The notes: generated by a model from the sequence alone, not told the origin. Positions 29,981 to 63,864 are shown, counted from the first letter of the stretch. The stretch is 64,000 nucleotides of DNA from Chloroflexota bacterium (GCA_003152165.1 PLZO01000034.1:2264-66263), one strand, 5' to 3'. Program-made: numbers and translations.

Positions 29981-32260
29981 GTGGGGGCCCTCGTGTCAGG
30001 AGACGACCAGCGGCGCCGCCAACTCTGGCAGCTGGCGGATGAGCTCCGCGGTTCCACCGAGGGCCGAAGCCGACTAAGCCTGCTCCGCGAAGCCGCTCTC
30101 CGTGGTTTGATGCCGACCTGGCGTGACCAGGCAGAGCTGGCGGCAGCCGCGGGGGTCGAGGATTCCGTAGATCCGTCGATCGTCGCCGACTTCCTGCTCG
30201 CCCTGACGGACCGCGAGGCGCCGAAACGCGTCCTTGACCCCTGGGCCGGACTCGGCGTGACGCTCGCGGCGCTCGAGTCGGAAGGCCGCGTTCGATCGGG
30301 CGTCGCGATAGAGATCAACCAGGACATCTACGAGCTCGTCATGGCGCTCCGTGGAGGATCGCGGATCCAGTGGCTGCTCGGCGACGCGTCGGAAATTCTG
30401 GCCGATGGACTCGATCCCTTCGATCTGATCGTTGGCTTCCCGCCGATCAACCTTCGGCCTGCGGTGCTCGAGACGCAGAGGCCCCACATCAGACTGAGGT
30501 CGAGCAAGACGTACACGATGCTCGTCCAGGCGGCGCTCGTCCTTGGGCCTGCGGGGGTTCTCGTGGCAGTCCTGCCAGAGAGCTTCTTCGGGAGCCCCAA
30601 CCTGGCGGTGCGCGAGGCGCTCAAGGCCGCGTCCGTCTTCCCAGTCGCCTCTTTTGCGTTGCCGCGCAGGGTCTTCTCGACCTCGATCGCGATGAGCCTG
30701 GTCGTCTTTGGCCGCGAGGCCGACAAATCTCTGTTTGTCGCTGAGCTCGATCCATCAACAGACATGGTGGCGGTCGTCTCTAACTTCCGTGCGCGGAACG
30801 AGGGTGTCCTCCCTCAGCTCGGCCGGCTCGTCACGAGGGCGTCGTTCATATCCTGGCGAGGCGTCATTGGGGACTCGGAGATTCGCGACGCGGCACGGGC
30901 CGCAGGTCTTGAAGCGGTCCCGTTCTCAACGCTCTGCTCTGAGTTCCATGCTCCGCGAAGAGCAGGCGATCCCTTTGCTCCCAAGCCGAACAGCGTCTAT
31001 CTCCCCAAGCTCGGGACGTCGCCAGCCGTCACTACTATCGATCAGCTCGAGATCAAACCGCAGAACTACCTCCAGCTCGTCGTTCGACCCGACCTAGCCG
31101 ATCCCGCATACGTGGCAGGGTTCCTCAACTCGCAACTGGGCCGCAAGATCCGCGACAGATACGCAACTGGAACCTACATCCCGCAGATCTCGCTTATGAG
31201 TCTTCGGGACGGCTTCGCATATCTCCCTCCATCTCTCCATCAGCAACGAGCCACGGTCGTTATCGCGCGAACCTTGACCGAGCTTCGCCACTCGATGCAA
31301 AGCCTCGATCGTGAGCTTTGGGAGCGACCACTCGCGGCCCGCCGAGTCGAGATGGAGCTCCACGAGCTCTTGGAGGGTGACGGGTCGGAGCGGTGGATGG
31401 AGTCGCTTCCGTTTCCTCTGGCGTCGCTCCTCTGGCTCTATCAGGCGACCGACGATCCCGAGCGCCGATGCAGGAATCTGGTTCGTTTCTTCGAGGGTGC
31501 AACCCTATTCCTCGTCGACCTCCACCTTAGTGCGTTGCGGGGCGATCCCGGCTTGCTTGGCAGCGCAATCGGGCACGGGAGACGGGATGCGGAGATCTAC
31601 TCCAGAGGATCGATCGGAATCTGGGCAGACCTACTCGCGCGGCTAGCCAAGCGCACACGCGAGCTTCTGGCCACCGACTCCTCACGCATCCTCGAGCTCT
31701 TCCGGGTCAGTGATCCTTTGCGGCTTGCTTCTGTTGCGAGCAGGCCCGTCGTCACCGCCCTCTTGCAGGATGGCGCCGGGTATCGTCGGGACTGGATAGG
31801 GCATGCTGCGGTGGCAGGCGTGCCAGAGTGGGAGCGCCGACTCTCACAAGCTGAGGCGACCCTTGCTCGATTTCGTGACGGTCTGGGCGAAGCCTTCGTG
31901 GGATGGGACCTCATTCGACCCGGTCAAGGCCGTAACCATGGAGGCGTCATCACAACCGCAATCGAACAGCTTGTCGGGTCGCGGAGCCACTTTCGGGAAG
32001 GCACCGTTGAGCTCCGTCAGCTTCCCGAAGATGGCGGCCTCTATATGCGCGAGGCGGGGGCCAGTCTGCTACTGCAGCTTGGTCCGCTGTTCCGAATGCG
32101 TCGGAGCCCGGAAACCGCGCAAGATGCGTGCTACTTCTACGATCGGCTTCAGCCGGAAGGCGTCCGCTGGGTGTCCCATCACTACGAGCCCCAACCCGAA
32201 GAGGTTCGCCCCGATAGCGAGGTGGTCCAGCTCATCGCGGAGCTCAACGCATTTGGTTGA
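29981..32260 (+). CDS. methyltransferase-like (gamma-class fold, catalytic tetrad FPPI) - HsdS-like TRD - unknown 400-aa C-terminal domain fusion protein
   Basis: Motif I VLDPWAGLGVTLAAL, acidic loop GVAIEINQD, motif IV position DLIVGFPPI (F and I replace the conserved N/D and aromatic residue). TRD-like segment ...IPQISLMSLRDGFAYLPPSLHQQRATVVIARTLTEL (HsdS consensus LPP..EQ..I). Lies immediately upstream of hsdM. Confidence 0.7.
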   Translation: MGALVSGDDQRRRQLWQLADELRGSTEGRSRLSLLREAALRGLMPTWRDQAELAAAAGVEDSVDPSIVADFLLALTDREAPKRVLDPWAGLGVTLAALESEGRVRSGVAIEINQDIYELVMALRGGSRIQWLLGDASEILADGLDPFDLIVGFPPINLRPAVLETQRPHIRLRSSKTYTMLVQAALVLGPAGVLVAVLPESFFGSPNLAVREALKAASVFPVASFALPRRVFSTSIAMSLVVFGREADKSLFVAELDPSTDMVAVVSNFRARNEGVLPQLGRLVTRASFISWRGVIGDSEIRDAARAAGLEAVPFSTLCSEFHAPRRAGDPFAPKPNSVYLPKLGTSPAVTTIDQLEIKPQNYLQLVVRPDLADPAYVAGFLNSQLGRKIRDRYATGTYIPQISLMSLRDGFAYLPPSLHQQRATVVIARTLTELRHSMQSLDRELWERPLAARRVEMELHELLEGDGSERWMESLPFPLASLLWLYQATDDPERRCRNLVRFFEGATLFLVDLHLSALRGDPGLLGSAIGHGRRDAEIYSRGSIGIWADLLARLAKRTRELLATDSSRILELFRVSDPLRLASVASRPVVTALLQDGAGYRRDWIGHAAVAGVPEWERRLSQAEATLARFRDGLGEAFVGWDLIRPGQGRNHGGVITTAIEQLVGSRSHFREGTVELRQLPEDGGLYMREAGASLLLQLGPLFRMRRSPETAQDACYFYDRLQPEGVRWVSHHYEPQPEEVRPDSEVVQLIAELNAFG

Positions 32261-32302
32261 CGTGGCGCTGAAGCGACAAGAGACCGCCGGAGGTTCGATG
32301 CT

Positions 32303-33844
32303 GTGGATGTAGGTCAACTCGAGGGCTGGCTATGGGACGCCGCCTGCGAGATCCGAGGCCCCCTCGACGCCCCCAAGTACAAGGACTACATCCTCCCGCT
32401 CGTCTTCCTCAAGCGTCTCTCCGACGTGTTCGACGACGAGGTGGAAGGGTTGGGAGCGGAGTTCGGCGACCCGAAGGCGGCGGCCAGCCTCGTCGATGGG
32501 GACCATGCCTTGGTCCGCTTCTACCTCCCCGAGGCGGCCCGCTGGCCGAGCATCGCGCGCCGGACGACGGGCCTCGGTGAACACCTGACCGACGCGGTGC
32601 GGGCCGTCGCTCGGGAGAACCCTCGGCTCCAGGGCGTCATCGACGTGGTTGACTTCAACGCCACGACCGCCGGCCAGCGGATCGTTGACGATCAGCGGCT
32701 GGCAGCGTTGGTTCAGGTTCTCGGACGCCACCGCCTCGGCCTCCGCGATGTTGAGCCGGACCTCCTGGGCCGTGCCTACGAGTACCTCCTTCGCAAGTTC
32801 GCAGAGGGTCAAGGCCAGTCCGCCGGGGAGTTCTACACGCCCCGCGAGGTTGGCATCCTCATGGCCCGGCTGCTCGATCCCCAGCCGGGGATGGAAGTCT
32901 ACGACCCCTGCTGTGGCTCGAGCGGCCTCCTCATCAAGTGCCACCTCCGCCTGCTCGAGACCCACGGTGTCGAGGCGAACGGGCATCGACGCTTCCCTTC
33001 GGGCGTGGCTCCTCTTCGCCTGTTCGGACAGGAGATCAACCCATCCACGTTCGCGATAAGCCGGATGAACGCCTTTATCCACGATATGGACGCCGACATC
33101 GCCCTCGGAGACACCATGCGGAGTCCCAAGTTCACGGACGACGATGGTCGGCTTCATCGGTTCGACATAGTCACGGCGAACCCGATGTGGAATCAGGACT
33201 TTCCTCAGTCCACCTATGAGACTGACCCGTACCAAAGGTTCGAGTGGGGTGCGCCTCCGTCATCCACGGCCGACTGGGGCTGGGTCCAGCACATGTATCG
33301 GTCGCTGAACGATCAGGGTCGAATGGCGGTCGTTCTCGACACGGGGGCGGCATCAAGGGGGTCTGGCTCGGAGGGATCGAACCGGGAGCGCGATATTCGC
33401 AAGCGGTTCGTAGAACAGGATCTCGTGGAGGCTGTAGTCCTCCTGCCAGAGAACATGTTCTACAACACCCCGGCACCGGCCATCGTGGCGGTTGTCAACC
33501 GGCGGAAACGCCACCCTGGAGAGATCCTCTTCATCAACGCTTCGGCGCAGTTTGAGAAGGGTAGGCCGAAGAACTATATCGCCGAGAAGCACCTCGACCA
33601 GTTGCGCCAGGTGTTCGAGGACTGGGCTTCGCAGCCAGGACTGTCTGCGGTTGTGGCGACATTGGCCGTATCCGACAACGAATACAACCTCGCACCCAGT
33701 CGATACGTAGCTACCGAGGGTGCCGTCGATGAGTTGCCCCTGGCAGACGCAGTCCTACTTCTGGCTGAGGCCGAGGAAGACCGCGCCGACGCCGACCGTA
33801 GGTTGAAGGCCGTCCTCGACCGACTTGGAGGCGGCATTGAGTGA
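32303..33844 (+). CDS. hsdM: type I restriction-modification system methyltransferase subunit
   Basis: HsdM_N (KYKDYILPLVFLKRLSD), AdoMet motif VYDPCCGSSG, motif IV ANPMW (atypical, usually NPPF). Precedes hsdS and hsdR. Confidence 0.9.
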   Translation: MDVGQLEGWLWDAACEIRGPLDAPKYKDYILPLVFLKRLSDVFDDEVEGLGAEFGDPKAAASLVDGDHALVRFYLPEAARWPSIARRTTGLGEHLTDAVRAVARENPRLQGVIDVVDFNATTAGQRIVDDQRLAALVQVLGRHRLGLRDVEPDLLGRAYEYLLRKFAEGQGQSAGEFYTPREVGILMARLLDPQPGMEVYDPCCGSSGLLIKCHLRLLETHGVEANGHRRFPSGVAPLRLFGQEINPSTFAISRMNAFIHDMDADIALGDTMRSPKFTDDDGRLHRFDIVTANPMWNQDFPQSTYETDPYQRFEWGAPPSSTADWGWVQHMYRSLNDQGRMAVVLDTGAASRGSGSEGSNRERDIRKRFVEQDLVEAVVLLPENMFYNTPAPAIVAVVNRRKRHPGEILFINASAQFEKGRPKNYIAEKHLDQLRQVFEDWASQPGLSAVVATLAVSDNEYNLAPSRYVATEGAVDELPLADAVLLLAEAEEDRADADRRLKAVLDRLGGGIE

Positions 33845-34997
33845 GGGCTGGACAACGGTCCCGTTCGACGAGGCCTTTCGGGGGAAACCGCGTGGCCGTG
33901 AGATACCCCAAATCGAGACTCGCAAAGTACGGTCCAAGGGCCAATGGCCAGTCATTGGGCAGGGTGCTGGTCAGATAGAGGGCTATACCGACGATGGGAC
34001 CTTGTTGTTTCCGGACGATCTCCTGCCGGTGATTCTCTATGGGCCGCACACCAGGCGGATCAAGCTCGTGACCCATCCCTTCGTAGCCGGTCCGAACGTC
34101 CGCTTCATGTGGCCGGCCTCGGACTACGACGCAGAGTTCTCCTACTACATGGCCTCCGCTGCAGATGTGCCTTCGAGGGGATACAACGACCATTTCACGC
34201 TGTTCAGGCAGCAGATGTTTGCGAGACCCACGCTCAGGGAGCAGCGTGTGATTGCTACGGCCCTCCGCGAGGCCAGACTCGCTCATCAAGCTACCGAGCG
34301 TGTCCTGTCGGCCGTTCGTCAGCTCAGGGCCAGCATGCTGGAGCGTCTCTTTGCTGGAGGGGTTGGGTCCACGACTTCTGAGACTGTGGTCGGGGCGTGG
34401 CCGATGCGTTCGCTCGGTCAGATGGTCCATCCGGACCGCCCTATCTGCTACGGGATCGTCCAACCCGGTCCCGACGTTCGCGACGGCGTTCCATTCGTCA
34501 ACCTCACGGATTGCCACGACGGCGAGATTGACGTCGGTCGCCTAAAGCGAACCAGTACAGACATCGCCGCGAGAAACTCGCGATCCCGACTCCAGGCGGG
34601 CGACGTGTTGGTCTCAATTCGGGCCACGGCCGGCAGGATCGCGGTTGTTCCGCCGGAGCTGGACGGTGCCTTCACAACACGCGGGATGGCCCGAGTTAGC
34701 CCGGCCCCATGGGCGGACTCCCATTTCATCTCGTACTACCTGCAGACCTCGGCGGCCCAAGCGTTCCTAAGGTCGTCCATGCGGGGCGTCGCCCTTCGGC
34801 AAGTGAACATCAGAGACCTCAGGCAGATGCCCGCGCCAGCACCCCCGCTTGAGATCCAGACCCAGATCGCAGGTGCCCTCCAGGACGTAGATGCGAAGCT
34901 TCTCGCCGAGAAATCTCGGAGTGCAGCTCTGGAAACCCTGTTCTCCGTCCTTCTGCGTGGCCTGACAAGTGGGCGGATCCAGGTTTCGGATTCGTGA
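33825..34997 (+). CDS. hsdS: type I restriction-modification system specificity subunit
   Basis: Two TRDs separated by conserved helical spacers (...LREQRVIATALREA... and ...PLEIQTQIAGAL...). TTG start overlapping hsdM by 20 nt. Confidence 0.85.
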   Translation: MEAALSEGWTTVPFDEAFRGKPRGREIPQIETRKVRSKGQWPVIGQGAGQIEGYTDDGTLLFPDDLLPVILYGPHTRRIKLVTHPFVAGPNVRFMWPASDYDAEFSYYMASAADVPSRGYNDHFTLFRQQMFARPTLREQRVIATALREARLAHQATERVLSAVRQLRASMLERLFAGGVGSTTSETVVGAWPMRSLGQMVHPDRPICYGIVQPGPDVRDGVPFVNLTDCHDGEIDVGRLKRTSTDIAARNSRSRLQAGDVLVSIRATAGRIAVVPPELDGAFTTRGMARVSPAPWADSHFISYYLQTSAAQAFLRSSMRGVALRQVNIRDLRQMPAPAPPLEIQTQIAGALQDVDAKLLAEKSRSAALETLFSVLLRGLTSGRIQVSDS

Positions 34998-37879
34998 AGT
35001 CGCTCGCCTCGGAACGAGATGTTGTGCAGGCGTCCTTGGTTCGCTATGCGATCAGCGTCGGATGGGAGTACAAGAGCCGTGACGACTCAGTCACCCTCCG
35101 ACGCGGCGAGACAGGGGTCGTATTCCACGACATTCTCGTCGAGCAGCTCCAACGCCTGAACCCCGGTGTGGTGGATCGCGCCCGAGCGGAGGACCTTGTG
35201 GGCCGCCTGGTGCGCGTTCGCCCGACCATCGAGGGGAACCTCGACGCGTGGGAATACCTCCGCGGCCTCAAGACGGTCTTCGTCCCCAATGAGAATCGCG
35301 AACGGAATGTCCGTGTCGCTGACCTGGAGGACATCGGGCGCAACGTATTCCATGTGACAGACGAGTTCTCGTTTACGAACGGGACGAAGACCATCCGCCC
35401 GGACGTAGTTCTCCTTGTCAATGGCATTCCGGTCGTCGTGGTCGAAGCGAAGGCGGTCACGAAGCAGGGTGGAATTGCTGCGGCCCTCGACCAACTGGTC
35501 CGATATCACCGTGAAGGTCCCGAGCTGCTGGCACTCGTCCAGCTTCAGACGCTTACCCAGCTCGTTCGCTTCTACTACGGCGCGACTTGGTCTTTCTCAT
35601 CGAAGTACCTATTCGACTGGCGCGACGAGGCAACGGGGAACTACGAGATGCTCGTTGAGTCGTTCCTTGACCCACGTCGAGTTCTCCGAGTCATCTCGGA
35701 TTTCATCCTCTTCACTCGCACCGACGAGGAGCTGTCCAAGGTCGTCCTGCGTCCCCACCAGATCAGAGCGGTCGAGCATGTCGTTGAGCGGATTGCCGAT
35801 AAGGACCAATCCCGCGGCCTTGTCTGGCACACCCAGGGGAGTGGAAAGACCTACTCGATGCTCGTAGCGGCGAAGAAGGTCATCGAGTCGCCTATCTTCG
35901 AGAACCCGACCGTCCTTATCCTCGTGGACCGCAACGAGCTGGAGGCGCAGCTCTTCGGGAACCTCGAAGCGGTCGGCTTCGGACACGTCGAGCTCGCCGA
36001 GTCGAAGCGCCACCTCCGGGATCTCCTGACCCACGACCACCGAGGGCTGATCGTCTCGACGATCCACAAGTTCGACGGGATGCCACCTCGCGTCACCGAG
36101 CGCGAGAACGTCGTGGTGCTGGTCGATGAAGCCCATCGGACGACCGGGGGCGACCTTGGCAACTACCTAATGGGCGCGCTGCCAAATGCCACCTACATCG
36201 GGTTTACGGGAACGCCTATAGACAGGTCCGCACAGGGCAAAGGCACATTCAAGACCTTTGGGGGAGGCGATCCGAGGGGTTACCTCGACAGGTACTCGAT
36301 CCGCGAGTCGATCACCGATGGCACTACGGTGCCCCTCCACTATGCCCTGGCTCCGAACGAGCTCCAGGTGGACCGTGAGGTACTCGAGCGGGAGTTCCTC
36401 TCGCTGGCTGAGCTCGAGGGTGTCAGCGATATCGACGAGCTGGACCGGGTCCTCCAGCGGGCGGTGACGCTTAGGAACATGCTCAAGAACCCGGATCGGG
36501 TCGAGAAGGTCGCGACCTACGTCGCCGAGCATTTCCGCTCCAACGTGGAGCCGATGGGCTTCAAGGCGTTCCTCGTCGGCGTAGATCGAGACGCCTGTTG
36601 CCGCCTGAAAGTCGCCCTCGATCGGCATTTGCCGCCTGGCTACTCGAAGGTCGTCATCTCCGCAGCTCAGAACGACCCTGCTGAGATTGCCGCCTTCCAC
36701 ATTTCCCACGAGGAAGAGCGACAGGTTCGCCGCTTGTTCCGCAAGGCCGATGAGCTACCCAAGATCCTGATCGTGACGGAGAAGCTCCTTACCGGTTTCG
36801 ACGCCCCGATCCTCTACGCGATGTACCTCGACAAGCCGATGCGTGACCACGTGCTGCTCCAGGCGATTGCACGGGTGAACCGACCCTACGAAGACGGCGA
36901 CGGGCGGCGGAAGACTTCTGGGTTGGTCCTCGACTTCGTCGGCATTTTCGAGAAGCTCGAGCGGGCGCTGGCATTCGACTCCGAGGATGTCGCCGGACTT
37001 GTCGAGGACCTCGACGTTCTCCGCCGGCAGTTCGAGCGGCTGCTCGCAAGCGGTCGGACGAAGTACCTGGCGCTCGGAGAAGGGCTGATGGCTGACAAGA
37101 TCGTCGAGGCTGTCCTCCTCGCCTTCCGGGATGCCGAGGCCCGCGACGCCTTCTACGCCTTCTACCGCGAGCTCGAGGAGCTATACGAGATCCTCTCTCC
37201 CGACCAATTCCTCAGGCCCTTCATCGACGACTTCGGGCGCCTTTCGGAGATCTACCGCCTGCTTCGCGCCTCCTACGAGCCCAGCTTGGACGTGACCCAC
37301 AGCTTCCTCCGCAAGACGGCCGCCCTCGTCCAGGAGCAGACCCACACAGGCACGATCCGTGAGGTCGAGGAGGTCTACGTCCTCAATGAGGGCGTGATTG
37401 ACGTCCTCGCGGACCCAGACAAGCCCGAGGTGATCAAGGTCTTCAACCTTCTGAAGGTGCTGGATCAGCAGGCTCGCGATCGTTCTAAGGAGGCTCCGTA
37501 CCTCATCCCGATCGGGGAACGGGCGGAAGAGGTGGCTCGAGCGTTCGAGGATCGGCAACTTACGACGCAGCAGGCTCTCGATGAGCTGACCGGGCTGCTC
37601 AACGAAGCACGCGAAGCCGACTCCTCTCGGGAGGCATCCGACTTTTCCGTGGAAGGGTTTTCGGTCTTCTGGCTCCTAAAGCGCATTGGAGTGGTCGACG
37701 CTGAACCCATCGCCAGATCTGTCGAGGCGGTCTTCGTCGAGCATCCGTACTGGCGGCAGAGCGCGACGCAAGAACGCGACGTGCGTCGCGACCTCTATAA
37801 GTCGCTCATCGAAGCCAAGGTGACGGAGGTCGGGGACGTTGTTGGATATCTCCTGAGCGTCCTTCGCAGGTCAGCGTGA
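34994..37879 (+). CDS. hsdR: type I restriction enzyme endonuclease/helicase subunit
   Basis: 961 aa. N-terminal PD-(D/E)xK region, Walker A HTQGSGKTYSM, DEAH (LVDEAHRT), helicase C motifs. Overlaps hsdS stop. Confidence 0.9.
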   Translation: MKSLASERDVVQASLVRYAISVGWEYKSRDDSVTLRRGETGVVFHDILVEQLQRLNPGVVDRARAEDLVGRLVRVRPTIEGNLDAWEYLRGLKTVFVPNENRERNVRVADLEDIGRNVFHVTDEFSFTNGTKTIRPDVVLLVNGIPVVVVEAKAVTKQGGIAAALDQLVRYHREGPELLALVQLQTLTQLVRFYYGATWSFSSKYLFDWRDEATGNYEMLVESFLDPRRVLRVISDFILFTRTDEELSKVVLRPHQIRAVEHVVERIADKDQSRGLVWHTQGSGKTYSMLVAAKKVIESPIFENPTVLILVDRNELEAQLFGNLEAVGFGHVELAESKRHLRDLLTHDHRGLIVSTIHKFDGMPPRVTERENVVVLVDEAHRTTGGDLGNYLMGALPNATYIGFTGTPIDRSAQGKGTFKTFGGGDPRGYLDRYSIRESITDGTTVPLHYALAPNELQVDREVLEREFLSLAELEGVSDIDELDRVLQRAVTLRNMLKNPDRVEKVATYVAEHFRSNVEPMGFKAFLVGVDRDACCRLKVALDRHLPPGYSKVVISAAQNDPAEIAAFHISHEEERQVRRLFRKADELPKILIVTEKLLTGFDAPILYAMYLDKPMRDHVLLQAIARVNRPYEDGDGRRKTSGLVLDFVGIFEKLERALAFDSEDVAGLVEDLDVLRRQFERLLASGRTKYLALGEGLMADKIVEAVLLAFRDAEARDAFYAFYRELEELYEILSPDQFLRPFIDDFGRLSEIYRLLRASYEPSLDVTHSFLRKTAALVQEQTHTGTIREVEEVYVLNEGVIDVLADPDKPEVIKVFNLLKVLDQQARDRSKEAPYLIPIGERAEEVARAFEDRQLTTQQALDELTGLLNEAREADSSREASDFSVEGFSVFWLLKRIGVVDAEPIARSVEAVFVEHPYWRQSATQERDVRRDLYKSLIEAKVTEVGDVVGYLLSVLRRSA

Positions 37880-38340
37880 CACCCGAACTTCAGCAGGTCG
37901 AAGCCGTCTCCGCCGCCAGCTTTAGGCGGGACGTTAGGGTCTGGTCAAAGCGGGTCGGCGTCGAGATCCGCGAGATTCGGCTTCGGCCCATGAAGCGAAA
38001 GGTCGCGTCGGCATCGTCAAGTGGCCGGCTCACGTTCGATGTCGGGCTTCTTACCGAGCCTGCCGATCGTCGAGCCGAGGTCGTCGTTCATGAACTCGTC
38101 CATCTGCGGGTCGGCAACCACGGCGTGCTATTCCGGAGCCTCGTCCGTGCTCACCTCGCTGAGCAACAGCTGGGTCACCGTCGACGCGACAGAACCCATG
38201 TGCCGCCTCGAAACGAGGTTCGAGCGCCTTCGCAGACGAGGGGCCGAGCTGGCGCAACGGGATTTGCAAAACCCGAGCAGGTACGTCTCGATTCGTGTCG
38301 TCATCGTTTGGGAACGTCAGAGAACAGGCCGACTCGGTAG
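37876..38340 (+). CDS. YgjP/DUF45-like metal-dependent hydrolase, C-terminal half only
   Basis: ...WSKRVGVEIREIRLRPMKRKVASASSSGRLTFDVGLLTEP...VVVHELVHLRVGNHG (HExxH). Family often accompanies type I R-M operons. N-terminal half absent and C-terminal tail looks degenerate. Confidence 0.55.
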   Translation: MTPELQQVEAVSAASFRRDVRVWSKRVGVEIREIRLRPMKRKVASASSSGRLTFDVGLLTEPADRRAEVVVHELVHLRVGNHGVLFRSLVRAHLAEQQLGHRRRDRTHVPPRNEVRAPSQTRGRAGATGFAKPEQVRLDSCRHRLGTSENRPTR

Positions 38341-38634
38341 AGTCCGACCATCGGCTGGCTCCGGCCAGAATGGGCCCAACTAGGGCCACCCCGGGGCCGC
38401 CCTGCCGGAGTTTGCAACGGCGAGCGGACGTTCGGCGCGTCGCTGGCGGCGACTTCGACGGCCTTGGCGACGTCGCGCCCGTCGACAGGGCACCCGCGCT
38501 GACCACGAAGGCCGCCTCGGTCTACTTTCCGGACGCGCTCATGCCCATTGCTTCCCACGCCCACCTCGAGCACTTCTGGGTCCTCCTGGGAGGTGCGAAT
38601 GTCAAGCGAAAACAGGACCACTCGTGATGGCGAA

Positions 38635-39976: not shown

Positions 39977-40142
39977 AGGCGATCATTCCGCCCCTGAGTG
40001 GGTCCGTTTCACGCTATCACTCACATGTACTGGTTCACGAGCGAGTCGGTGACCCCACGCGCGAGGTCTCGGACGAACCGTTGGACAGAGTCGGCCATGG
40101 GCGAAATCGTAGCGGTGCGTTTCGGCCACGAGAGGAGGTGAT

Positions 40143-40484
40143 GTGGCACCCGAAGGCTGGGCCGTCACGATAGACCCACTTATCGTTACAAGCGCGAGGG
40201 CCTTGCGGGCGGAGCAGGGTCCGCGGGGTATCGTCGGGCACAGCAATCATAGGCCCGTGCTTGCACAGTGCCTCGAGGTTCTCGTCAGGGGCGATCGTTG
40301 GCGATCGATGCCCTACGTCGCCGCGGCGGAGCTGGGCCGGGCATCGGAGTTCTTGAGGGTTGCAGATCCCGACACTCAGGCCGTGGCCGGGCGGATCGTG
40401 AAACTCCTCAGTGAGCAGGGCTTCCCCGACTACCGCGACCTGCTCCCGTCCGCCGGCGAATGTCGCTATTCACCCGTAGCGTGA
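40143..40484 (+). CDS. hypothetical protein
   Basis: 113-aa ORF, GTG 40143 after gaggagg. No recognisable motif. Convergent with and overlapping the 3' end of the GmrSD-like gene by 19 nt. Confidence 0.35.
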   Translation: MAPEGWAVTIDPLIVTSARALRAEQGPRGIVGHSNHRPVLAQCLEVLVRGDRWRSMPYVAAAELGRASEFLRVADPDTQAVAGRIVKLLSEQGFPDYRDLLPSAGECRYSPVA

Positions 40485-44340: not shown

Positions 44341-44388
44341 GGACTCCCGGCTCCCGCGTAGCAGGCCACCCTAGCCGCCAGGCTCGCC

Positions 44389-48502: not shown

Positions 48503-48822
48503 GCAGCTGGTGGCGCGACCGGAGGCCGCCCGAGCGCGCGAACTGGTGGAGTCGACGGCGGCGAGCGACGCCTGAGCCAGCTTTACATTGGGCGCTCCTG
48601 TCAACCACGCCTTTGCCGGCCTCGACGCAGCGCATCGAATTGGGGGGCACCACTCAGGCTGCCTGGCTGCTAACGAGGGATCGCGTAGCCGAAGTTACGG
48701 GTTCGACCGTCCGGATCGATGTCAGACCTCTAACGACAGGGCAGATTTCCGGCCGAACCTCCGGCGCCCAGCGAGACTCGGAAATGGCAACTGGGGCTCG
48801 TCCGGAGGCAAAGGAGTCTGAG

Positions 48823-56800: not shown

Positions 56801-57141
56801 CCGCGGCGGACACGGACGAGGCAAGGGCGAGCAACGGCTTGATCCCGTTCTGGATCTCCACAGGCCCGTTCAAGATCGAGCGTGACATCCCGGTCCTGCC
56901 TTTCAGTCGCGAGATTGAGCGCTATGAGCGCTTGCGAAGGTCACGAGCCGTCTACCGGCAGGTGATCGGGCAGGTCGCGCAGGAGGATCTCGTGGACTAC
57001 CTGCTTCGTCTGGGATCGGCTCGCGAGGTGCGGATGTCCCAGGCGGACCTCGCCGTTCGGCTCGAGGCGCTGCGGATCGACCTAGCGCCGCCGCCTCCGT
57101 CCGCACCCGACGGAGCGGTGGGCGACCCAATCGTCGAGTGA
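53848..57141 (+). CDS. large SNF2-like SF2 helicase (1111 aa)
   Basis: Motif I VADEVGLGKTLVA, motif II LIILDEFQRYRS, helicase-C/motif VI SIGQEGLDFH...QREGRVHRYKG. About 600-aa insertion between motifs II and VI. Confidence 0.8.
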   Translation: MTYEPIAPRSLAALKPFQRETVRYVFERLHGDDEPVDRFLVADEVGLGKTLVARGVIARTIDRIREGGERRIDIVYISSNADIAAQNLQKLHPDGHTARDFAMRVTLLPARTGSLDSSDLNFVSFTPGTSFSLGDQFGRRDERLVLYRMLRSAWGGDAMDAPGVARILRGDAGLDAFLRDAAWFREHPAGLDATMVSAFAAELARREVEDLMPGGRPIRREFAELAATLTSDDDDQRHRAERAHLVGGLRAILARTCITAMQPALIILDEFQRYRSVLVLPEQPTEDQRLAHALFLELGANSKTLLLSATPYRMYTLSDETDSDDHYGDFIKTMEYLLGGEGARALGDNLRAYRDALLAIDRLDPDELATVRDAVVARLRRVMCRTERLAVEDKRGGMLDAGEPRTSAVTPADLRAFVALDTVSRDLKAAGDAVEYWKSTPYALSFMESYDVRARLNARRSSLSPAVENVLRLGDGILRTRNIRGYRPVDEGNPRLRALASELLRTDTTQPIWIPPSLAYYGLEGHFAPAAAIGFTKRLVFSAWTAVPQAIASLLSYRVERGMLHQHFETNQLVEGEHKPRTLLTFRSLDERAASMTSFLLLYPSLALARLGDPLLLGAAGTRSASEVRDLAASAIAAALDEILPPEDESDDRTNPAWYWVAPLLLDRALVPDTVRGFFGPNHRETAGSWATLKPGAEERDDAGNLALHVAAAADVLGGNLPNGRRPRDLASVLARLAVGGPAVCALRALWRPLSEADRADPRTLRAAARVAWGFRSLYRQPEVAAMIRGSTPEDAYWRSVTDYNIGGCLQAVLDEYAHVLPDVMGHLPGDSTLLDVADAIAAAMYRALTLRTARYGFTDLTTKTWHKERRRPTIGARFALRFGVDATDEANEIQRSTNVREAFNSPFWPFVLATTSIGQEGLDFHVYCHRVVHWNLPANPVDLEQREGRVHRYKGHALRRNIADRYAAAAFDGGADPWGQLFRAAADTDEARASNGLIPFWISTGPFKIERDIPVLPFSREIERYERLRRSRAVYRQVIGQVAQEDLVDYLLRLGSAREVRMSQADLAVRLEALRIDLAPPPPSAPDGAVGDPIVE

Positions 57142-57509: not shown

Positions 57510-57734
57510 TCTCTGCCTCGGAAGCCTGTATTGGCCTGGCGCGGGGAAGAACAGGCGTTATGGTTGCCCTTCACCCGGAAATGGCCTGGTGGCACACGAG
57601 ATGGATGTCGGCGCGCCTGAAGGCCTGCTCCACGGGTACACGCGGAGCAGGTAGCCGTTCGCCTTCGACGTTGTCGTGGTGGACTCGACCAAGTCCTACA
57701 TGTCGTTGTGCTTGCCGCCGGTCTTAGAGGTCTG

Positions 57735-59816
57735 ATGAACAAAGAAGTCGAATTATTTCTACATCCAGCCCAGGTCCTGCGTCGTACCGAGGCTCTCGCG
57801 TCTCCGAGCCCAGTACCGACGGTCGGCGGTGTTTACGGCTGGTGGTTTCGAACCCTTCCAGCCCCGCTGGACACCGCTGCCTGCGCCACTCAGGATGGCC
57901 TGACCCTACTGTACGTGGGGATCAGCCCGACTATCCCGCCGGCGACGGGTCGGCCGGCCAGCCAGCAGACACTGCGAGCCAGGATCCGGACCCACTACAC
58001 CGGCAATGCTGAGGCTTCGACCCTCCGAAAGACATTGGGCTGCCTGCTGGCCGATGAGCTCGGCATCGAGCTCAGGCGTGTTGGCTCCGGCACTCGGATG
58101 ACCTTCCTGGCCGGCGAGGCCAACTTGTCAGCCTGGATGGCCGAGAACGCCCTCGTGAGCTGGGTCACGCACCCGAGTCCCTGGGAGTTCGAGGACGAGT
58201 TGATCGCAACCTTGGATCTCCCGCTCAACCTCCTTGGTAACTCTAGGCACGCCTTCCACCCAGAGCTATCCCAAATTCGGTCGGCCGCCGTCGGCCGAGC
58301 CAAGGCTCTGCCTGTGATCCCCAATCCGGGCGTAGGGGGTCACTTTGTGGAGGAGCCATCAGGGACTAGCAATCGCTTCGGGGCACGGATTGTCGCTGAC
58401 GGGGCAGGAGAAGATTGCGCTGCCCTCGGACGTCTGGTGCTAACGGGTGTGGCAGCTAGAGCAGATCGTGCCTCGATCGACGATTCGCGGCTCATGCTCG
58501 CCGCAGCTCTCCGAGCACTACGCCAGGACGAGCGGCGCATCGACATCCTCGTGACTCCTGCGGGCTTTGTCGAACGGAGCCTGGACGGGGCGTGGTCCGG
58601 CGAACAGGGCTGGGACTCGAGCCAGGCTGACTTCGATCGCCTTGCAACCAGTGCCGCGTCGGTCGCGACCGAGCTGATGACTCCTGACTTGTGCGAGTTG
58701 GCCCTCGAAGTGGTTGACCACATTGTGCTGGGGATCGACGTCTGGCCGACTGACGATCCCGAACTTCATGGTGAGGTCGCTTGCCTCTATGACGTCCAGA
58801 CGGGCGCCGTTCGCCCCGTCACAGGGAAGTCGTACCCAACCACGGGTCAGCAACGCGACCTCATTCGGAATCCCGGCGCGCAATCCCATGTCATTGAGGT
58901 TGGCGACGAGCGCCTGGCAATCTTGGTTTGCTTCGATCTGGCCGCCTGGAGCCCGCGAGCTAATGCCAACGCAAAAGGCATCCGGGCGGGCACCTGGCAG
59001 GCGATGCAGGAGGCCGTCTCTAAGTCCCGGCCCACCCTGGCCGTCCAGCTGCCGCACACGGTGAGTAACTCCCGAACGTGGACTGCCGCTTGGGCTGCGT
59101 TCGAACGAAATGCGGGACCGGAGTTCCGAGCAGGTACGACTGCAATTCGTCACCTCGACCAGCAGTACAAGCCCGTTCCTGGTCCATTCGATCCGACACT
59201 ATTGGAAGGATCGGGTACCGGTGAGCGCGTGGTGGATATTGTCGTCGGCGGCAGGATCGAAATGATGACCCCAGCTGGCTCGTCGAGTCGAGGGCGCCAG
59301 CCAGTCAAGCGGTCGTCGACTGCGTCACGAGCTCGCACGCCGGGCAGGAACCCTGAGCGTGGAGTCGGGCTCGCGCGCACCGCACTCGAAGTCTTCCAAG
59401 CACGAATCGGCGCGTATCCGGATGGGATCCGGATTAAGGAGCTCGCGGACGAGCTGGGTCGGGCGGACAAGCCAATCTTCGGCGCCCGCCCACTCGTGAC
59501 GCTGCAAAGTGCCCTCAATGCTTCGCAGGCGCACGGCGTCTGGCACCGCAAGGCGGGGGCACTCTGGGTTGCCGGCAGCGGAAACTCCAGGATGGAGAGT
59601 GGTCTGTCCGGGCGAGCCCTGGCGGAAGCCCTCTACGGTTTCGTGGTGGTGCACTATCCCGATCATATCTTCCACTACGGGAAGACCCTAGATGAACTCG
59701 AGCGTTCAGGGATAAAGGTCAGAGGGACGGGCAACACGATGCGAGCGGCCCTAGCTGGAGCGCCGAAACGCTTCGAGCACATCCCAGGTCGTAGCGGCAA
59801 CTGGCGCTGGAAGTAA
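57735..59816 (+). CDS. three-domain protein: GIY-YIG-like nuclease domain + carbon-nitrogen hydrolase-like domain + C-terminal HARE-HTH-like domain
   Basis: N-term GVYGWWF...LLYVGIS...LRARIRTHY...STLRKTLGCLL (GIY-YIG/T5orf172-like). Middle IDILVTPAGFV / TGKSYPT / RLAILVCFDLAAW resembles CN-hydrolase E-K-C triad positions with Glu replaced by Ala. C-term GIRIKELADELGRADKPIFGARPLVTLQSAL (HARE-HTH-like). Confidence 0.6.
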   Translation: MNKEVELFLHPAQVLRRTEALASPSPVPTVGGVYGWWFRTLPAPLDTAACATQDGLTLLYVGISPTIPPATGRPASQQTLRARIRTHYTGNAEASTLRKTLGCLLADELGIELRRVGSGTRMTFLAGEANLSAWMAENALVSWVTHPSPWEFEDELIATLDLPLNLLGNSRHAFHPELSQIRSAAVGRAKALPVIPNPGVGGHFVEEPSGTSNRFGARIVADGAGEDCAALGRLVLTGVAARADRASIDDSRLMLAAALRALRQDERRIDILVTPAGFVERSLDGAWSGEQGWDSSQADFDRLATSAASVATELMTPDLCELALEVVDHIVLGIDVWPTDDPELHGEVACLYDVQTGAVRPVTGKSYPTTGQQRDLIRNPGAQSHVIEVGDERLAILVCFDLAAWSPRANANAKGIRAGTWQAMQEAVSKSRPTLAVQLPHTVSNSRTWTAAWAAFERNAGPEFRAGTTAIRHLDQQYKPVPGPFDPTLLEGSGTGERVVDIVVGGRIEMMTPAGSSSRGRQPVKRSSTASRARTPGRNPERGVGLARTALEVFQARIGAYPDGIRIKELADELGRADKPIFGARPLVTLQSALNASQAHGVWHRKAGALWVAGSGNSRMESGLSGRALAEALYGFVVVHYPDHIFHYGKTLDELERSGIKVRGTGNTMRAALAGAPKRFEHIPGRSGNWRWK

Positions 59817-59834: not shown

Positions 59835-62800
59835 TTGCGCACTGTTGACGGCGAGGTTCTCTTCAGCCCGACCGACCTGGTCGGGTTTCTCGCCTGCGGC
59901 CACCTCACGCAGCTTGATCGAGCAAGCTTTGCCGGACTGATCGAGAAGTCCAAGAAGGTCGATGAGGAGCTGCAACTCCTCATCGATAAGGGCCGCGAGC
60001 ACGAGACGAGGTACTTGGGGCTGCTTGCGGCCGAAGGGCTCGGCGTTACCGATATCGACGACGGCGACCACTCGGCCGCCGGTCTCCTCGCGGCTCGCGA
60101 GCGGACCATCGAGGCGATGCATCGCGGGGACGATGTGATCTACCAGGCCACATTCATCGAGGGTGGCTGGTCAGGCCAGGCGGACTTTCTCCGTCGCATC
60201 GATCAGCCAGGGGCCCCTAGCCGTCTCGGGGCATGGATCTATGAGCCCGAGGACACCAAGCTCGCGCTATCGGCGAAAGCGGGAGCTCTCGTCCAGCTTC
60301 TGACCTACGCGAGGATGGTTGAGGCCGTCCAAGGAATTGCGCCCGAGCGTGTGCACGTTGTGCTCGGTCGGGCGGAGGTCACGAAGGCATCATTCCGAGT
60401 TGCTGACTACGGTGCTTATCACCGGCTCGTCACACGCAGGTTCGAGGACCTTGTCCTCCGCGGCGAGCCTCCTACCGCCGAACTCCTTCATGTGGTTCCT
60501 GATCCGGTCGAGCACTGTGGCGTTTGCTCTTGGGCTCAGCACTGCCGTGATTTGCGCTATCGAGCAGGCCACCTGTCGAGGGTCTCGTTCATCCGACGCG
60601 ACCAGATCGAGGATCTCCGTGCGGCCGGGATCCCCACGATATGGGTGCTGGGCGGGCTTGGCGATCCTCTTCCTCGGGTCAAAGGCATCGCCGTTGACGT
60701 CCTGGCCCGACTCCAGGACCAGGCGGGTATGCAGCTCGAAGAAGCCCGGACTCGCGTCCGGTTCCACAAGATCCTCGAACACCCCGAACCGCCGCCAGAA
60801 CGCGGCCTTCTCAGCCTCCCTGAGCCATCGCCACTCGACGTCTTCTTTGATTTTGAGGGCGACCGGTTCGCACTCGACGATGGCTTGGAGTACCTCTTTG
60901 GTTGGGTCGAAGCCCCCGGCCCTGGCACTGAGCCGGCGGACGCTGCCTTCAGCACGCTCTGGGCACACGACCGAGTGCAAGAGAAGCAGGCGCTCGAAGC
61001 CTTCGTCGACTACGTGTCCGAACGCCGAGTGCGCGACCCCGGAATGCATGTCTACCACTACGCGCCATATGAGCCGACCACCCTCCACCGGCTGACGCAG
61101 CTCCACGGGACGCGCCAGGAGGAGCTCGACGTTCTGCTCCGTGCTGGCGTGTTCGTCGACCTCTACCGAGTCGTGCGTCAGGGGGTCCGCGTTTCGTCCG
61201 AGTCGTATTCGATCAAACGTCTCGAGCCGCTCTACGCACTCACCCGTGACGCGGACGGGATCGCCAAGGCACTCTCGAGCATGATCGCTTACGAGCGCTG
61301 GCTGCGTGATCGAGACCAGGCGATCCTCGACGACATCGCCGACTACAACCGGGACGACTGCGTGTCGACCCTGATGCTGCGCGACTGGCTCGAGGAGCGC
61401 CGTATCGAGTTGATCCAACGGCTCGGCCGAGACCCAGGCCGGCCGGTCCCGGGCTCTAGTGAGCCGTCAGATGCGCTACGAGCGACCGATGACGAGACTG
61501 CCAGCGTACGCGCCGCGCTCACCGCCGACATTCCGCCGGAAACGCTGGACACAGACGCACTCGATCCCGAACGTCAGGCGCGACGCCTTCTTGCGAACCT
61601 GCTGGGTTGGCACCGGCGTGAAGCGCGGGCGGACTGGTTCGAATGGTTCCGCCTTCGCGACCTGGGCGCCGACGATCTCGTCCGTGACAGCACCGCGCTC
61701 GGCGTCAATGGCTTCGAGGGCCAGGTCGGGCTGGAGGCGAAGTCGAAGCTCTTCCGTTGGCTCTTCGATCCAGAGCAGGAAACGAAGCTTCGCGAAGGCG
61801 CAGAGGTCGTTGCCGCTCCCGGACTTGACCCGACCAACATGAGCACGATCGGCGTAGTCCGTCGCCTTGATCTTGACCTGGGTGTGATTGAGATCAAGAT
61901 CGGGCCGAAAAAGGAGCGCCTGGACCTGGACCAGATCACCGGATTCCTCCCCGATACGCCGTTCCGATCAGGCCCACAGTCCGATTCGGTCTTGGGGCTC
62001 GGCAAATGGGTCGTTGAAAACGCGATCGCCGCCGATGGGCCGAGTCGGGCGGTTCGCGACGTCCTACTCGATCGGCCACCGCGGATTTCTGGGATCACTC
62101 CCGGGGCGCCACTAGTCCCGGACGGTCACGCTCCCAACCTCGCGGCTCGCGAACTTGCGCTGGCTCTTGACCATTCGTATCTGGCGATTCAAGGTCCGCC
62201 GGGCTCGGGAAAGACGTATGTCGGGGCAGCTATCGTCCTCGACCTCGTGCGTCCGCGCCCGGGCCACCAGAGGCGGGTCGTGGGCATTACGGCGTTCAGC
62301 CACGCAGCGATTGGCAACCTGCTGGCGGAGATCGTCCGCCAATCGAAAGGGCAATCGCCCGTCCGGATTCTCCAGAAGGCCGGCGAGAACGAGTGGTGTC
62401 GACTCGACGCGGTCGAGTGTACGAACGACAACCAAGTAGTGGAAGCCCGCTTGGCCGCGGGGGATGTCGACATCGTCGCTGGGACCTCCTGGCTTTGGAG
62501 TCGGCCCGAGCTGGTCGAAGCGGTCGATACGCTCGTCGTCGACGAGGCGGGGCAGGTGTCGCTCGCGAACCTGGTTGCGTCCGGCCGGGCAGCCCGCAAC
62601 CTCGTCCTTCTTGGGGATCCCCAGCAGCTGTCACAGCCGGTCAAGGGAGCCCATCCTCCCGGCGCCGAGAAGAGCGCTCTCGAGCATGTCGTAGGGAATC
62701 ACGAGGCGATTCCGGCGGATCGCGGGGTGTTCCTCGCGACCACTCGCCGCCTTCACCCGTCGATTTGCTCGTTCACGTCAGAGCTCTTCTATGACGGACG

Positions 62801-63365
62801 GCTGAGGTCGATGGACGGTCTCGAGCTGCAGTCAATTCTTTCGGACGACCCAATCCTCGGTGGTGACGGGTTGCGGTGGGTCCCCGTGGAGCACGTCGGG
62901 CGGACGAACTTCTCGTCTGAGGAGGTCGACGTTGTTGCGTCGCTCGTCAGCGAGTTGCTTACCAAGAAGTGGCGCGACCGCGACAAGAATGTCCAGCCTA
63001 TTCAGCCGAAGGACATCCTCGTTGTCTCGCCGTACAACGCTCAAGTGGTGCTGCTGCACAAGGCGCTGCCGGCCCATGTCCGCGTCGGCACTGTCGACAA
63101 GTTCCAGGGCAAGGAAGCGCCGGTCGTCATTTATTCGATGGCGACGTCGACTCCGGACGACATGCCTCGCGACATGTCGTTTCTCTTTAGCCGGAACCGC
63201 TTCAACGTGGCCACATCGCGCGCCCAGGCCCACGTCATCCTTGTTTGCAACCCGGCGCTCCTCACCGTCCCCTGCAAAACCCCGGAGCAGATGCGTTTGG
63301 CGAACGTCCTTGCGCGTTTCGTCGAGCTGGCGGGCGAATCGGCTACACGAACCGATCCCACCTAA
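59835..63365 (+). CDS. TM0106-family RecB-like nuclease + RNase H-like domain + C-terminal Upf1/DNA2-like SF1 helicase (1176 aa)
   Basis: N-terminal Cas4/RecB-like PD-(D/E)xK with CxxC...C cluster, central ...VYHYAPYEPTTL... exonuclease-like fold, C-terminal AAA_11/AAA_12: QGPPGSGKTYV, DEAGQ, GDPQQL, VDKFQGKEAPVVIYS, RFNVATSRAQ. Confidence 0.85.
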   Translation: MRTVDGEVLFSPTDLVGFLACGHLTQLDRASFAGLIEKSKKVDEELQLLIDKGREHETRYLGLLAAEGLGVTDIDDGDHSAAGLLAARERTIEAMHRGDDVIYQATFIEGGWSGQADFLRRIDQPGAPSRLGAWIYEPEDTKLALSAKAGALVQLLTYARMVEAVQGIAPERVHVVLGRAEVTKASFRVADYGAYHRLVTRRFEDLVLRGEPPTAELLHVVPDPVEHCGVCSWAQHCRDLRYRAGHLSRVSFIRRDQIEDLRAAGIPTIWVLGGLGDPLPRVKGIAVDVLARLQDQAGMQLEEARTRVRFHKILEHPEPPPERGLLSLPEPSPLDVFFDFEGDRFALDDGLEYLFGWVEAPGPGTEPADAAFSTLWAHDRVQEKQALEAFVDYVSERRVRDPGMHVYHYAPYEPTTLHRLTQLHGTRQEELDVLLRAGVFVDLYRVVRQGVRVSSESYSIKRLEPLYALTRDADGIAKALSSMIAYERWLRDRDQAILDDIADYNRDDCVSTLMLRDWLEERRIELIQRLGRDPGRPVPGSSEPSDALRATDDETASVRAALTADIPPETLDTDALDPERQARRLLANLLGWHRREARADWFEWFRLRDLGADDLVRDSTALGVNGFEGQVGLEAKSKLFRWLFDPEQETKLREGAEVVAAPGLDPTNMSTIGVVRRLDLDLGVIEIKIGPKKERLDLDQITGFLPDTPFRSGPQSDSVLGLGKWVVENAIAADGPSRAVRDVLLDRPPRISGITPGAPLVPDGHAPNLAARELALALDHSYLAIQGPPGSGKTYVGAAIVLDLVRPRPGHQRRVVGITAFSHAAIGNLLAEIVRQSKGQSPVRILQKAGENEWCRLDAVECTNDNQVVEARLAAGDVDIVAGTSWLWSRPELVEAVDTLVVDEAGQVSLANLVASGRAARNLVLLGDPQQLSQPVKGAHPPGAEKSALEHVVGNHEAIPADRGVFLATTRRLHPSICSFTSELFYDGRLRSMDGLELQSILSDDPILGGDGLRWVPVEHVGRTNFSSEEVDVVASLVSELLTKKWRDRDKNVQPIQPKDILVVSPYNAQVVLLHKALPAHVRVGTVDKFQGKEAPVVIYSMATSTPDDMPRDMSFLFSRNRFNVATSRAQAHVILVCNPALLTVPCKTPEQMRLANVLARFVELAGESATRTDPT

Positions 63366-63426
63366 GGACTCGCCGAGAGCGCGGAACCTTGTACTCACCG
63401 GTCTCACCTGCACGTAGACTGCGAAT

Positions 63427-63864
63427 ATGGCCAGATACCCAGAACGCCCCCTTCCGTGGGTCTCGAAGCCCTATGGTCCTGACGAGGACGCTTGGGACGA
63501 GGCCAAGGACCAAGCCCGTCGTACCATCTATCGTTGGGCCGCCGAAGGCCGTTACGGCACATACACCGATCTCGTCCGCGAGGTCACCGCCATCGAGTGG
63601 CTGGATGGTGCATTTACCCACCACGGCACACAAATAGGAGTGCTCCTGGGACAGGTGTCGATGGAGGAGCTGGACCGAATCGAGGATCGTCCGCTGCTAT
63701 CTGCTCTCGTGGTTGGCAAGGAGGAGAGCATGCCAACAAGCGGCTTCTGGGGGATGCTCCAGGAGCTCGGTATCGAGGATCCGGCCACCGAAATGGGTAG
63801 GCTCGAATTCTGGTCGAATGAGGTTAAGTTGGCGTTGGGCTACTACGGCTCCCGCCTCCCGTGA
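63427..63864 (+). CDS. hypothetical protein
   Basis: 145-aa ORF co-oriented 62 nt after the RecB/SF1 gene. No recognised motif. Confidence 0.45.
   Translation: MARYPERPLPWVSKPYGPDEDAWDEAKDQARRTIYRWAAEGRYGTYTDLVREVTAIEWLDGAFTHHGTQIGVLLGQVSMEELDRIEDRPLLSALVVGKEESMPTSGFWGMLQELGIEDPATEMGRLEFWSNEVKLALGYYGSRLP

Follow-up and report, generated by a model that had tools for sequence, protein, structure and literature searches.

The stretch of DNA considered here (the window) comprises 64,000 nucleotides of one strand from a Chloroflexota bacterium (GCA_003152165.1, PLZO01000034.1:2264-66263), and all positions are counted from its first letter. The region from 29,503 to beyond 64,000 is very probably a strain-specific defence island of a high-G+C bacterium, one that lies in a slot of variable content immediately behind an aminotransferase gene and would have been put together piece by piece from six or more independent modules. 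Taken alone, the island contributes little, as one further example of a variable chromosomal site with stacked immunity genes in the course of erosion; its interest lies in drawing attention to a conserved cassette of five genes (44,897-50,634, here called g1 to g5) that sits between two recognised systems. This cassette is a widespread conserved unit, with over 4,000 protein clusters to represent it, and we found no description of it either in the defence catalogues (PADLOC 2.0, NCBIfam 2026) or in the literature searched. A preliminary description of the same DNA had named a BrxD-like operon and a SNF2-Mrr gene as separate items; both are present, but together they form the one conserved cassette.

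A conserved five-gene cassette

The open reading frames (ORFs) of the window were scanned against the protein families of Pfam, PADLOC 2.0 and NCBIfam 2026, and some of them also against PHROGs; the ORF listing and these scans together provide a gap-free map of 29,981-63,864. Within that map the cassette consists of the following genes.

44897..45673, + strand: g1, 258 aa, helical hairpin plus alpha/beta domain (structure model)
45652..46647, + strand: g2, BrxD-like AAA+ paralog (Pfam BrxC_BrxD 2.9e-12; PADLOC BrxD 4.7e-11; NCBIfam BrxD 40.5 bits)
46644..47963, + strand: g3, BrxD-like AAA+ ATPase, 439 aa (Pfam BrxC_BrxD 2.1e-18; NCBIfam BrxD 54.9 bits)
48017..48502, + strand: g4, 161 aa, RNase H-like with an endonuclease-V-like fold
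48613..50634, + strand: g5, 673-aa SNF2 helicase with a C-terminal Mrr_cat nuclease (SNF2-rel_dom 3e-45; Helicase_C; Mrr_cat 1.8e-25, full domain)

The order of these genes is conserved across many phyla. More than 4,253 homologues of g3 were found at E <= 1e-5, with 45-88% identity across phyla, and the best-matching 80 genomes are all metagenome-assembled genomes of uncultured organisms assigned to the Chloroflexota, Acidobacteriota, Binatia, Dehalococcoidia, Bacillota, Gemmatimonadota and others. Gene order was counted in 83 loci from many phyla, 76 of which have enough downstream sequence to be informative about g4 and g5 and 81 of which lie on contigs that reach g1. The g2 and g3 genes are adjacent in all 83 loci and g1 precedes them in 81 of 81, while a SNF2 gene follows g3 in the same order and on the same strand in 57 of 76, accompanied in nearly all cases by g4. 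Two of these 57 SNF2 genes are cut by the contig end; among the 55 complete ones, 16 carry the Mrr domain and 39 do not. No sixth conserved downstream gene was found across the cassette loci. In the window the layout is that of an operon, with overlaps of 22 nt between g1 and g2 and 4 nt between g2 and g3, and g1 starts at a TTG codon (44897) behind AGGAGG. In about 12 loci g4 and the SNF2 gene are joined in one reading frame as a natural fusion (L051, L053, L055, L056, L064-L066, L068, L070, L083, L088 and L092, at ~11.3-13.4 kb in each).

The predicted proteins include two members of one ATPase family, a SNF2 enzyme and two products (g1 and g4) with no match in Pfam, PADLOC, NCBIfam or PHROGs. 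In g3 the Walker A (GxGKSH) and Walker B (DEVE) motifs are invariant among homologues. In g2 the Walker A GK[ST] and Walker B DE are missing, with GGAAVKF and LDI at those positions, and because its Walker motifs are degenerate g2 is probably an inactive BrxD-like AAA+ paralog. Both proteins fall in Pfam BrxC_BrxD, and their likeness to each other in a profile-profile comparison (hhalign) is weak (E 1.4e-3). The structure model of g1 is very confident (mean predicted local distance difference test score 95.7) and consists of a long helical hairpin with an alpha/beta domain; fold searches with it returned coiled-coil matches only, and no significant structural neighbour. The fold of g4 is of the endonuclease V (EndoV) / UvrC C-terminal type, with four invariant residues (E75, D84, E145 and E156). 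Sequence searches of g1, g3 and g4 against solved structures were uninformative.

We do not regard the cassette as a member of any known system, because its scores lie far below the family cut-offs and no PADLOC model matches g1 or g4. The curated NCBIfam cut-off for BrxD (NF033438) is 350 bits, as against the 40.5 and 54.9 bits of g2 and g3, and among the 21 ORFs scanned at 30-64 kb there is no match to the PglZ, PglX/BrxX (or, in type 4, PAPS reductase) or BrxC/PglY proteins by which bacteriophage exclusion (BREX) systems of any type are recognised. In PADLOC, g5 appears both ZorD-like and DpdE-like, and every one of its NCBIfam matches is far below its cut-off; for the ZorD of type I Zorya it reaches 144 bits where 1500 are required, and no ZorA, ZorB or ZorC match accompanies it. 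As for Shango, which comprises SngA (TerB), SngB and SngC, the sole match is that of g3 to SngB over a 38-residue P-loop.

What the cassette does is a matter of interpretation. The chances seem to us evenly divided for and against its being a previously undescribed anti-phage system, in which a g1-g3 core senses invading DNA and loads or licenses the two proteins that destroy it, one of the EndoV fold and the other a SNF2 translocase that may or may not carry Mrr. By the proposed mechanism, the g2/g3 pair of ORC/Cdc6-type ATPases, held by g1 as a scaffold, would be an ATP-dependent sensor or loader that recognises foreign DNA and then loads or licenses the g4-g5 translocase-nuclease, which would degrade that DNA. 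The g4-g5 effector would be a translocase that carries an Mrr nuclease and/or uses the EndoV-fold protein. Such an action would parallel that of the BrxD-BrxHI dyad of type 2 BREX and that of ZorD in Zorya.

Several observations weigh against an immune function or against this form of it. The cross-phylum conservation of g3, at 45-65% identity, exceeds that of many defence proteins, most of the SNF2 partners are without Mrr, and a canonical active site could not be established for g4. In 19 of the 76 informative loci g1-g3 stand without g4 or g5 and with no conserved substitute partner; the g1-g3 core can thus exist alone, and a helicase-loading role cannot be general. The commonest Pfam families among 136 sampled neighbours are metabolic, so that the association with defence across loci is modest, and homologues of hsdM, hsdR or GmrSD occur within 10 kb of the cassette in only 4 of the 83 loci.

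The high conservation and the mostly metabolic neighbours would also suit an alternative that we consider unlikely, if still deserving of some weight, namely that the cassette is an accessory module for DNA repair or other DNA transactions (an EndoV-like lesion binder, a SNF2 translocase and ORC/Cdc6-type loaders), or a module for mobile-element maintenance, and is not immune at all. The kinship of the g4 fold with endonuclease V and the C-terminal part of UvrC is in keeping with such a role, as is the fact that the cassette was not found in the plasmid, phage or viral-contig collections searched. On the other hand, relatives of the cassette are rare and patchy, occurring in at least 511 of 185,579 species genomes (one genome per species), and between a quarter and a third of the SNF2 partners bear an Mrr restriction-nuclease domain. 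The cassette also lies inside defence clusters in the window and in three other loci, where the company consists of BREX (L010), of SIR2 and NERD genes (L011) and of toxin-antitoxin genes (L012), and one neighbour sample includes matches to restriction-modification (R-M) genes, BrxHI, Cas1, DrmMI, MADS and PDC.

We consider it improbable that the SNF2-Mrr gene forms a system apart from the BrxD-like genes and stands next to them by chance. The 19 loci that hold g1-g3 alone would be expected under such an arrangement, but the presence of g4 and g5 behind g3 in the other 57, in many phyla, would not. Neither would the lack of any other conserved neighbour, the uniform G+C content at third codon positions (GC3) of g1-g5 (0.68-0.75), or the recurrence of the same five genes in identical order in three contigs whose contexts are otherwise unrelated.

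Two further associations were considered and rejected. In L010:6239-17278 a cassette of the three-gene form and a type 2 BREX system (pglY, pglZ, brxD and brxHI) are arranged tail to tail; the idea that this form is a general accessory of type 2 BREX was dismissed, since homologues of BrxHI, BrxD and PglZ stand beside it in that locus only, i.e., 1 of 19 three-gene loci. A link between the cassette and the other systems of the island was likewise rejected, there being no Azaca match near the 83 loci in addition to the low count of R-M and GmrSD homologues given above.

Were the cassette indeed to restrict phages, it would represent a new system largely confined to uncultured soil and groundwater phyla, a host range that would explain why screens in model hosts have missed it. 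It would also provide a second setting in which a BrxD-type ATPase is found with a helicase partner, with a bearing on the role of BrxD in BREX, and an instance of the defensive use of the endonuclease-V fold.

The island, its left border and its modules

From 29,503 to the end of the window nearly all genes can be assigned to defence families through Pfam, PADLOC or NCBIfam. Proteins identical to those of the window were found on wood-associated metagenome contigs, the longest of which (115 kb; ENA ERZ27254241 k141_1400134) is the parent contig of the window. Close relatives were reached through the 90%-identity cluster of the flanking aminotransferase, which led to three contigs (L101, L102 and L103) that are 96.7-97.4% identical in nucleotide sequence (blastn) to 22,241-29,502 of the window. 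In all three the homology stops at exactly 29502, 134 bp past the aminotransferase stop codon, and the place of the R-M operon is taken by a 213-aa gene, a ClpP-like gene and an IS1-like transposase, none of which has a PADLOC match. Because the three relatives diverge there and then carry different cargo, we place the left border of the island at 29502/29503, and the variation in the cargo of this slot between strains supports its interpretation as an island. The preliminary description had proposed that synteny of the whole block in related genomes would speak against an island; the comparison came out in the island's favour.

The remaining features of the island, from left to right, are as follows.

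29503..29980, no strand: left junction of the island (blastn alignments of L101, L102 and L103 all end at 29502)
29981..32260, + strand: 759-aa divergent N6-methyltransferase-like protein with a segment resembling a target recognition domain (PADLOC mad2 1.4e-14; MTase_II and Specificity_I weak)
32303..33844, + strand: hsdM, type I methyltransferase (HsdM_N and N6_Mtase; PADLOC MTase_I 3e-225)
33825..34997, + strand: hsdS, type I specificity subunit (Methylase_S; PADLOC Specificity_I models span both halves)
34994..37879, + strand: hsdR, type I restriction subunit (HSDR_N, SWI2_SNF2, ResIII, T1R_D3-like; PADLOC REase_I 3e-105)
37876..38340, + strand: YgjP-like metallopeptidase ORF, 154 aa (Pfam YgjP-like 4.7e-15)
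38625..39985, - strand: internally deleted IS21-family element, 1.36 kb (inverted repeats and IstA/IstB C-terminal matches)
40466..43438, - strand: 990-aa GmrSD-family type IV enzyme (GmrSD_N 2.5e-34, GmrSD_C 2.9e-26, DUF5655; PADLOC Orf5 1e-168, HEC-06, PDC-S11 3e-47)
~44000..44374, + strand: possible tyrosine-recombinase fragment (LTGLRRTELRDL ... STKGSGLR) (XerC-like match, E = 0.32 over 60 residues)
44389..44778, + strand: 3' fragment of a DUF3427 gene (Pfam DUF3427 3.9e-17, profile 164-278 of 280)
50686..51942, + strand: zacA, DUF6361 (PADLOC ZacA 2e-109, residues 1-411 against model 1-394 of 396; Pfam DUF6361)
51905..53851, + strand: zacB, phospholipase D-type (PLD) nuclease (PADLOC ZacB 4e-142; PLDc_2)
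53806..57141, + strand: zacC, superfamily 2 (SF2) helicase (PADLOC ZacC E = 0, 1053 bits)
57708..59816, + strand: 702-aa GIY-YIG nuclease protein with an uncharacterised C-terminus of ~500 aa (Pfam GIY_YIG_2 3e-31)
59835..63365, + strand: 1176-aa TM0106-type RecB-like nuclease fused to an Upf1-like superfamily 1 (SF1) helicase (TIGR03491 7.8e-70; AAA_11, AAA_12, RNase_H_2)
63427..63864, + strand: 145-aa orphan protein (no family match in Pfam, PADLOC, NCBIfam or a further scan)

At least six modules of unrelated systems are thus packed into 34 kb, with the IS21 remnant and its inverted repeats among them. GC3 differs from module to module, ranging from the values of the cassette through those of Azaca (0.79-0.83) to those of the IS21 scraps (0.91), and this modular composition, together with truncated genes lying between intact systems, fits a history of repeated gain and erosion. 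The preliminary description had suggested such a history for a 34-kb island of layered systems, and it holds up well, in that all the parts it named other than an integrase fragment were found in their places; the type I R-M, GmrSD-like type IV, GIY-YIG and RecB/SF1 genes were confirmed by Pfam, PADLOC and NCBIfam, and what it called "PLD/helicase" can now be refined to a complete Azaca system with full-length PADLOC matches to ZacA, ZacB and ZacC. Its placing of the island's end at 63864 does not hold, for defence-like genes continue along the parent contig past that position. That the right border lies beyond the window is a point to be set against the island as delimited here. Besides further orphan genes, the next 10 kb of the parent contig (L004:10530-20438) hold a gene in which an ADP-ribosylglycohydrolase is fused to phosphatase domains and genes for an HD_4 protein and a NERD-UvrD helicase; the last is similar to PADLOC RTasNERD-Hel (8e-50) and resembles the helicases associated with defence-associated reverse transcriptases.

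The window contains no tRNA (ARAGORN), Rfam RNA or tandem repeat, and no att site, intact integrase or flanking direct repeat was found in it as a border marker. It is nonetheless hardly credible that the region is conserved chromosome and not an island, as this lack of tRNA, integrase and direct repeats might by itself suggest, given that the relatives diverge exactly at 29502, which already contradicts it at the left border, and that the composition is mosaic and transposon debris is present.

The type I R-M operon is represented by genes predicted to encode full-length HsdM, HsdS and HsdR. Enzymes of this type cleave unmodified foreign DNA following ATP-driven translocation. Directly upstream of hsdM, with a gap of 43 bp, lies the gene for the 759-aa protein, which has no match in Pfam or NCBIfam and for which a sequence search against solved structures was uninformative. 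Its S-adenosylmethionine-binding motif I reads LDPWAGLG, and 'GFPPI' is found where N6-methyltransferases have (D/N/S)PP(F/Y/W); the C-terminal half is 27% identical to a Streptomyces 'N-6 DNA methylase', and the protein resembles the solitary 943-aa ones on Streptomyces plasmids. Judging from these motifs, the protein, as an adjunct of the type I operon, may be a methyltransferase that is atypical or lacks activity. The GmrSD-family enzyme has both the N-terminal DUF262 and the C-terminal DUF1524 nuclease domain, and DGQQR and EHVMPQ motifs are evident in its translation. GmrSD-family type IV enzymes cleave DNA with modified bases.

The three zac genes all give end-to-end matches to their PADLOC models and lie in one operon, so the Azaca system is complete. 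The homologous BmAzaca prefers and cleaves the glucosyl-hydroxymethylcytosine DNA of phage T4 in vitro, with all three proteins required and the Walker A of ZacC essential (bioRxiv preprint 10.1101/2025.07.10.664194). Azaca and GmrSD would, we infer, add two nucleases that depend on modification to a type I enzyme that modification blocks, a sensible form of layering. Unmodified phage DNA would fall to type I R-M, and modified phage DNA to the type IV enzyme and Azaca, so that the immunity is layered.

Between these systems lies what would be the debris of earlier cargo and of its mobile-element carriers, i.e., the IS21 remnant, the DUF3427 fragment and the truncated YgjP-like ORF. The inverted repeats of the IS21-family element (38625-38652 and 39958-39985) are 28 nt long and 89% complementary, and their perfect 19-nt core occurs in exactly two copies in the window and in none of 100 shuffles. 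Instead of intact istA and istB genes, the element retains the last 70 residues of IstB (38697-38987; profile 167-236 of 238) and the C-terminal domain of IstA (39274-39738), in agreement with the internal deletion recognised earlier; a target-site duplication was looked for and none was seen. The YgjP-like ORF overlaps the hsdR stop codon and matches the profile only at 114-195 of 207, i.e., in its C-terminal half, followed by a non-homologous tail, and it may have been truncated by the nearby IS21 insertion. The DUF3427 fragment, also correctly described before as a C-terminal piece, aligns with the 3' end of full-length DUF3427 genes (355 aa) or DEAD/DEAH helicase genes on plasmids of Streptomyces, Hymenobacter and others, and by this alignment is the 3' stump of a decayed helicase/DUF3427 gene. 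The integrase fragment of the preliminary description could not be established. The segment at ~44,000-44,374 looks like the first catalytic-domain motifs of a tyrosine recombinase, but its best match, the XerC-like one, is not significant, and none was found in Pfam or among 72,556 plasmids. Two ORFs of this part of the island were rejected as genes, as neither has a coding GC3 pattern: 38986-39978 (+, 330 aa), which is antisense to the IS21 remnant, and 43498-44361 (+).

Toward the right end, the GIY-YIG protein belongs to a rare family with 21 homologues in 5.8 billion proteins, and a metagenome scan yielded just two short loci, which were uninformative. We lend somewhat less than even credence to the possibility that this protein and the RecB-like/SF1 helicase make up a two-gene nuclease-helicase system and are not independent genes. 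Pairs of a nuclease with an NTPase are a common design in defence, and the two genes are 18 bp apart in the window and adjoin each other again in L096, where they abut in reversed order. In the other four of the six contexts available, however, the GIY-YIG gene lacks this partner and is beside unrelated defence genes, which comprise SNF2, Dcm and RelA-SpoT genes in one case, a DUF499-DUF1156-SNF2 system in another, a PIN-MazE pair in a third, and NACHT and NERD-UvrD genes in the last. The 83 cassette loci add no information, as no homologue of either gene is near them. In the last of those four contexts (L100:1575-9393) the neighbours of the homologue are a NACHT protein of 1216 aa and a NERD-UvrD helicase, in another defence cluster. 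With some 20 relatives and a recurrent position beside defence genes, the GIY-YIG protein is a second, smaller lead.

The flank to the left of the island

The preliminary description took the genes at 6-29 kb to be core-like and thus a standard against which the composition of the island might be judged. That designation fails, since the region is itself mosaic, with a terminase gene, fragments of IS110 and DDE_3 transposases, and three segments (9955-12859, 13739-16258 and 17903-22240) that are absent from the relative L101. GC3 does fall along the window, but the fall begins ahead of the defence genes: values of 0.78-0.91 at 6-21.5 kb give way to 0.64-0.83 from about 22.4 kb onward.

The missing segments have recognisable contents. 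A prophage scrap at 9955-16258 contains a 783-aa Ig-domain protein (10191-12542) and a terminase large subunit (13625-15016), and both of its segments are missing from L101. The 4.3-kb segment at 17903-22240 (MarR, hydrolase, MarR, LUD and DUF1801 genes), also absent from the relative, is closed by an ORF (22018-23547) in which an IS110 Transposase_20 fragment reads in frame into the creatinase gene. The genes that follow at 22400-29368 (creatinase, creatininase, a YheO-type regulator, an amino-acid permease and the aminotransferase) have lower GC3 than those to their left, yet are conserved in the relatives.

Near the start of the window, the segment 276-313 (+), GGGTCCTCGGTTCAAATCCGAGCGTCGGCTCCA, resembles part of a tRNA or tmRNA, namely the T-arm with the 3' acceptor strand; some 0.8 kb upstream of it, just outside the left end of the window, is an alanine racemase gene. 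Neither ARAGORN nor Rfam gives a match there, and the segment may be an old att-type remnant. Close by, a 64-bp segment (208-271) is repeated at 97% identity in L101:14078-14141, 2.8 kb past the island breakpoint.

Comparison with known systems

As a whole, the region does not differ in kind from known defence islands, with which it shares a dense assortment of R-M, type IV, helicase-nuclease and ATPase systems, transposon remnants between them, variable cargo and a mosaic composition; what distinguishes the present case is that the left border alone has been mapped, with no integrase or att site identified. The Azaca genes (50686-57141) match the three models in canonical order, and with no difference detected they constitute an ordinary member of that system. 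The type IV enzyme has in common with GmrSD and BrxU the DUF262 and DUF1524 domains with DGQQR and His-Me motifs, and is extended at its C-terminus by DUF5655 and a PDC-S11-like domain. The 1176-aa protein is similar to MkoA of Mokosh in its helicase core, the only part that PADLOC MkoA matches (1e-44). Mokosh consists of MkoA with the PLD protein MkoB, or of a fused MkoC, whereas no PLD nuclease is found in or next to the 1176-aa gene, which has an N-terminal TM0106 RecB-like nuclease instead.

The cassette has partial counterparts among systems already described. Its g5 protein shares a SNF2 core with ZorD of type I Zorya, DpdE and DrmD, and a C-terminal Mrr-type nuclease with ZorD; it differs from them in having no ZorABC, Dpd or DISARM partners and in its length of 673 aa, as compared to more than 1000 aa for those proteins. 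The closer parallel is with type 2 BREX, in which BrxD, an ORC/Cdc6-type AAA+ protein, is paired in a dyad with the helicase BrxHI, of which it may be the loader (PMC12839542). The cassette and this dyad have in common a stand-alone ORC/Cdc6-type ATPase of the BrxD family that is tightly linked to an SF2 helicase. The BREX-related systems discussed in the same study centre on DUF499 and are different from the cassette. Other conflict systems have also been described in which an active ORC/Cdc6 gene is paired with a degenerate one (PMC10853773). Relative to type 2 BREX, the cassette is without PglZ, PglX, BrxC/PglY and PglW, its ATPase is duplicated into an active and a degenerate copy, its helicase is of the SNF2 and not the Lhr/Ski2-like type, and it adds an EndoV-fold protein and a novel coiled-coil protein.

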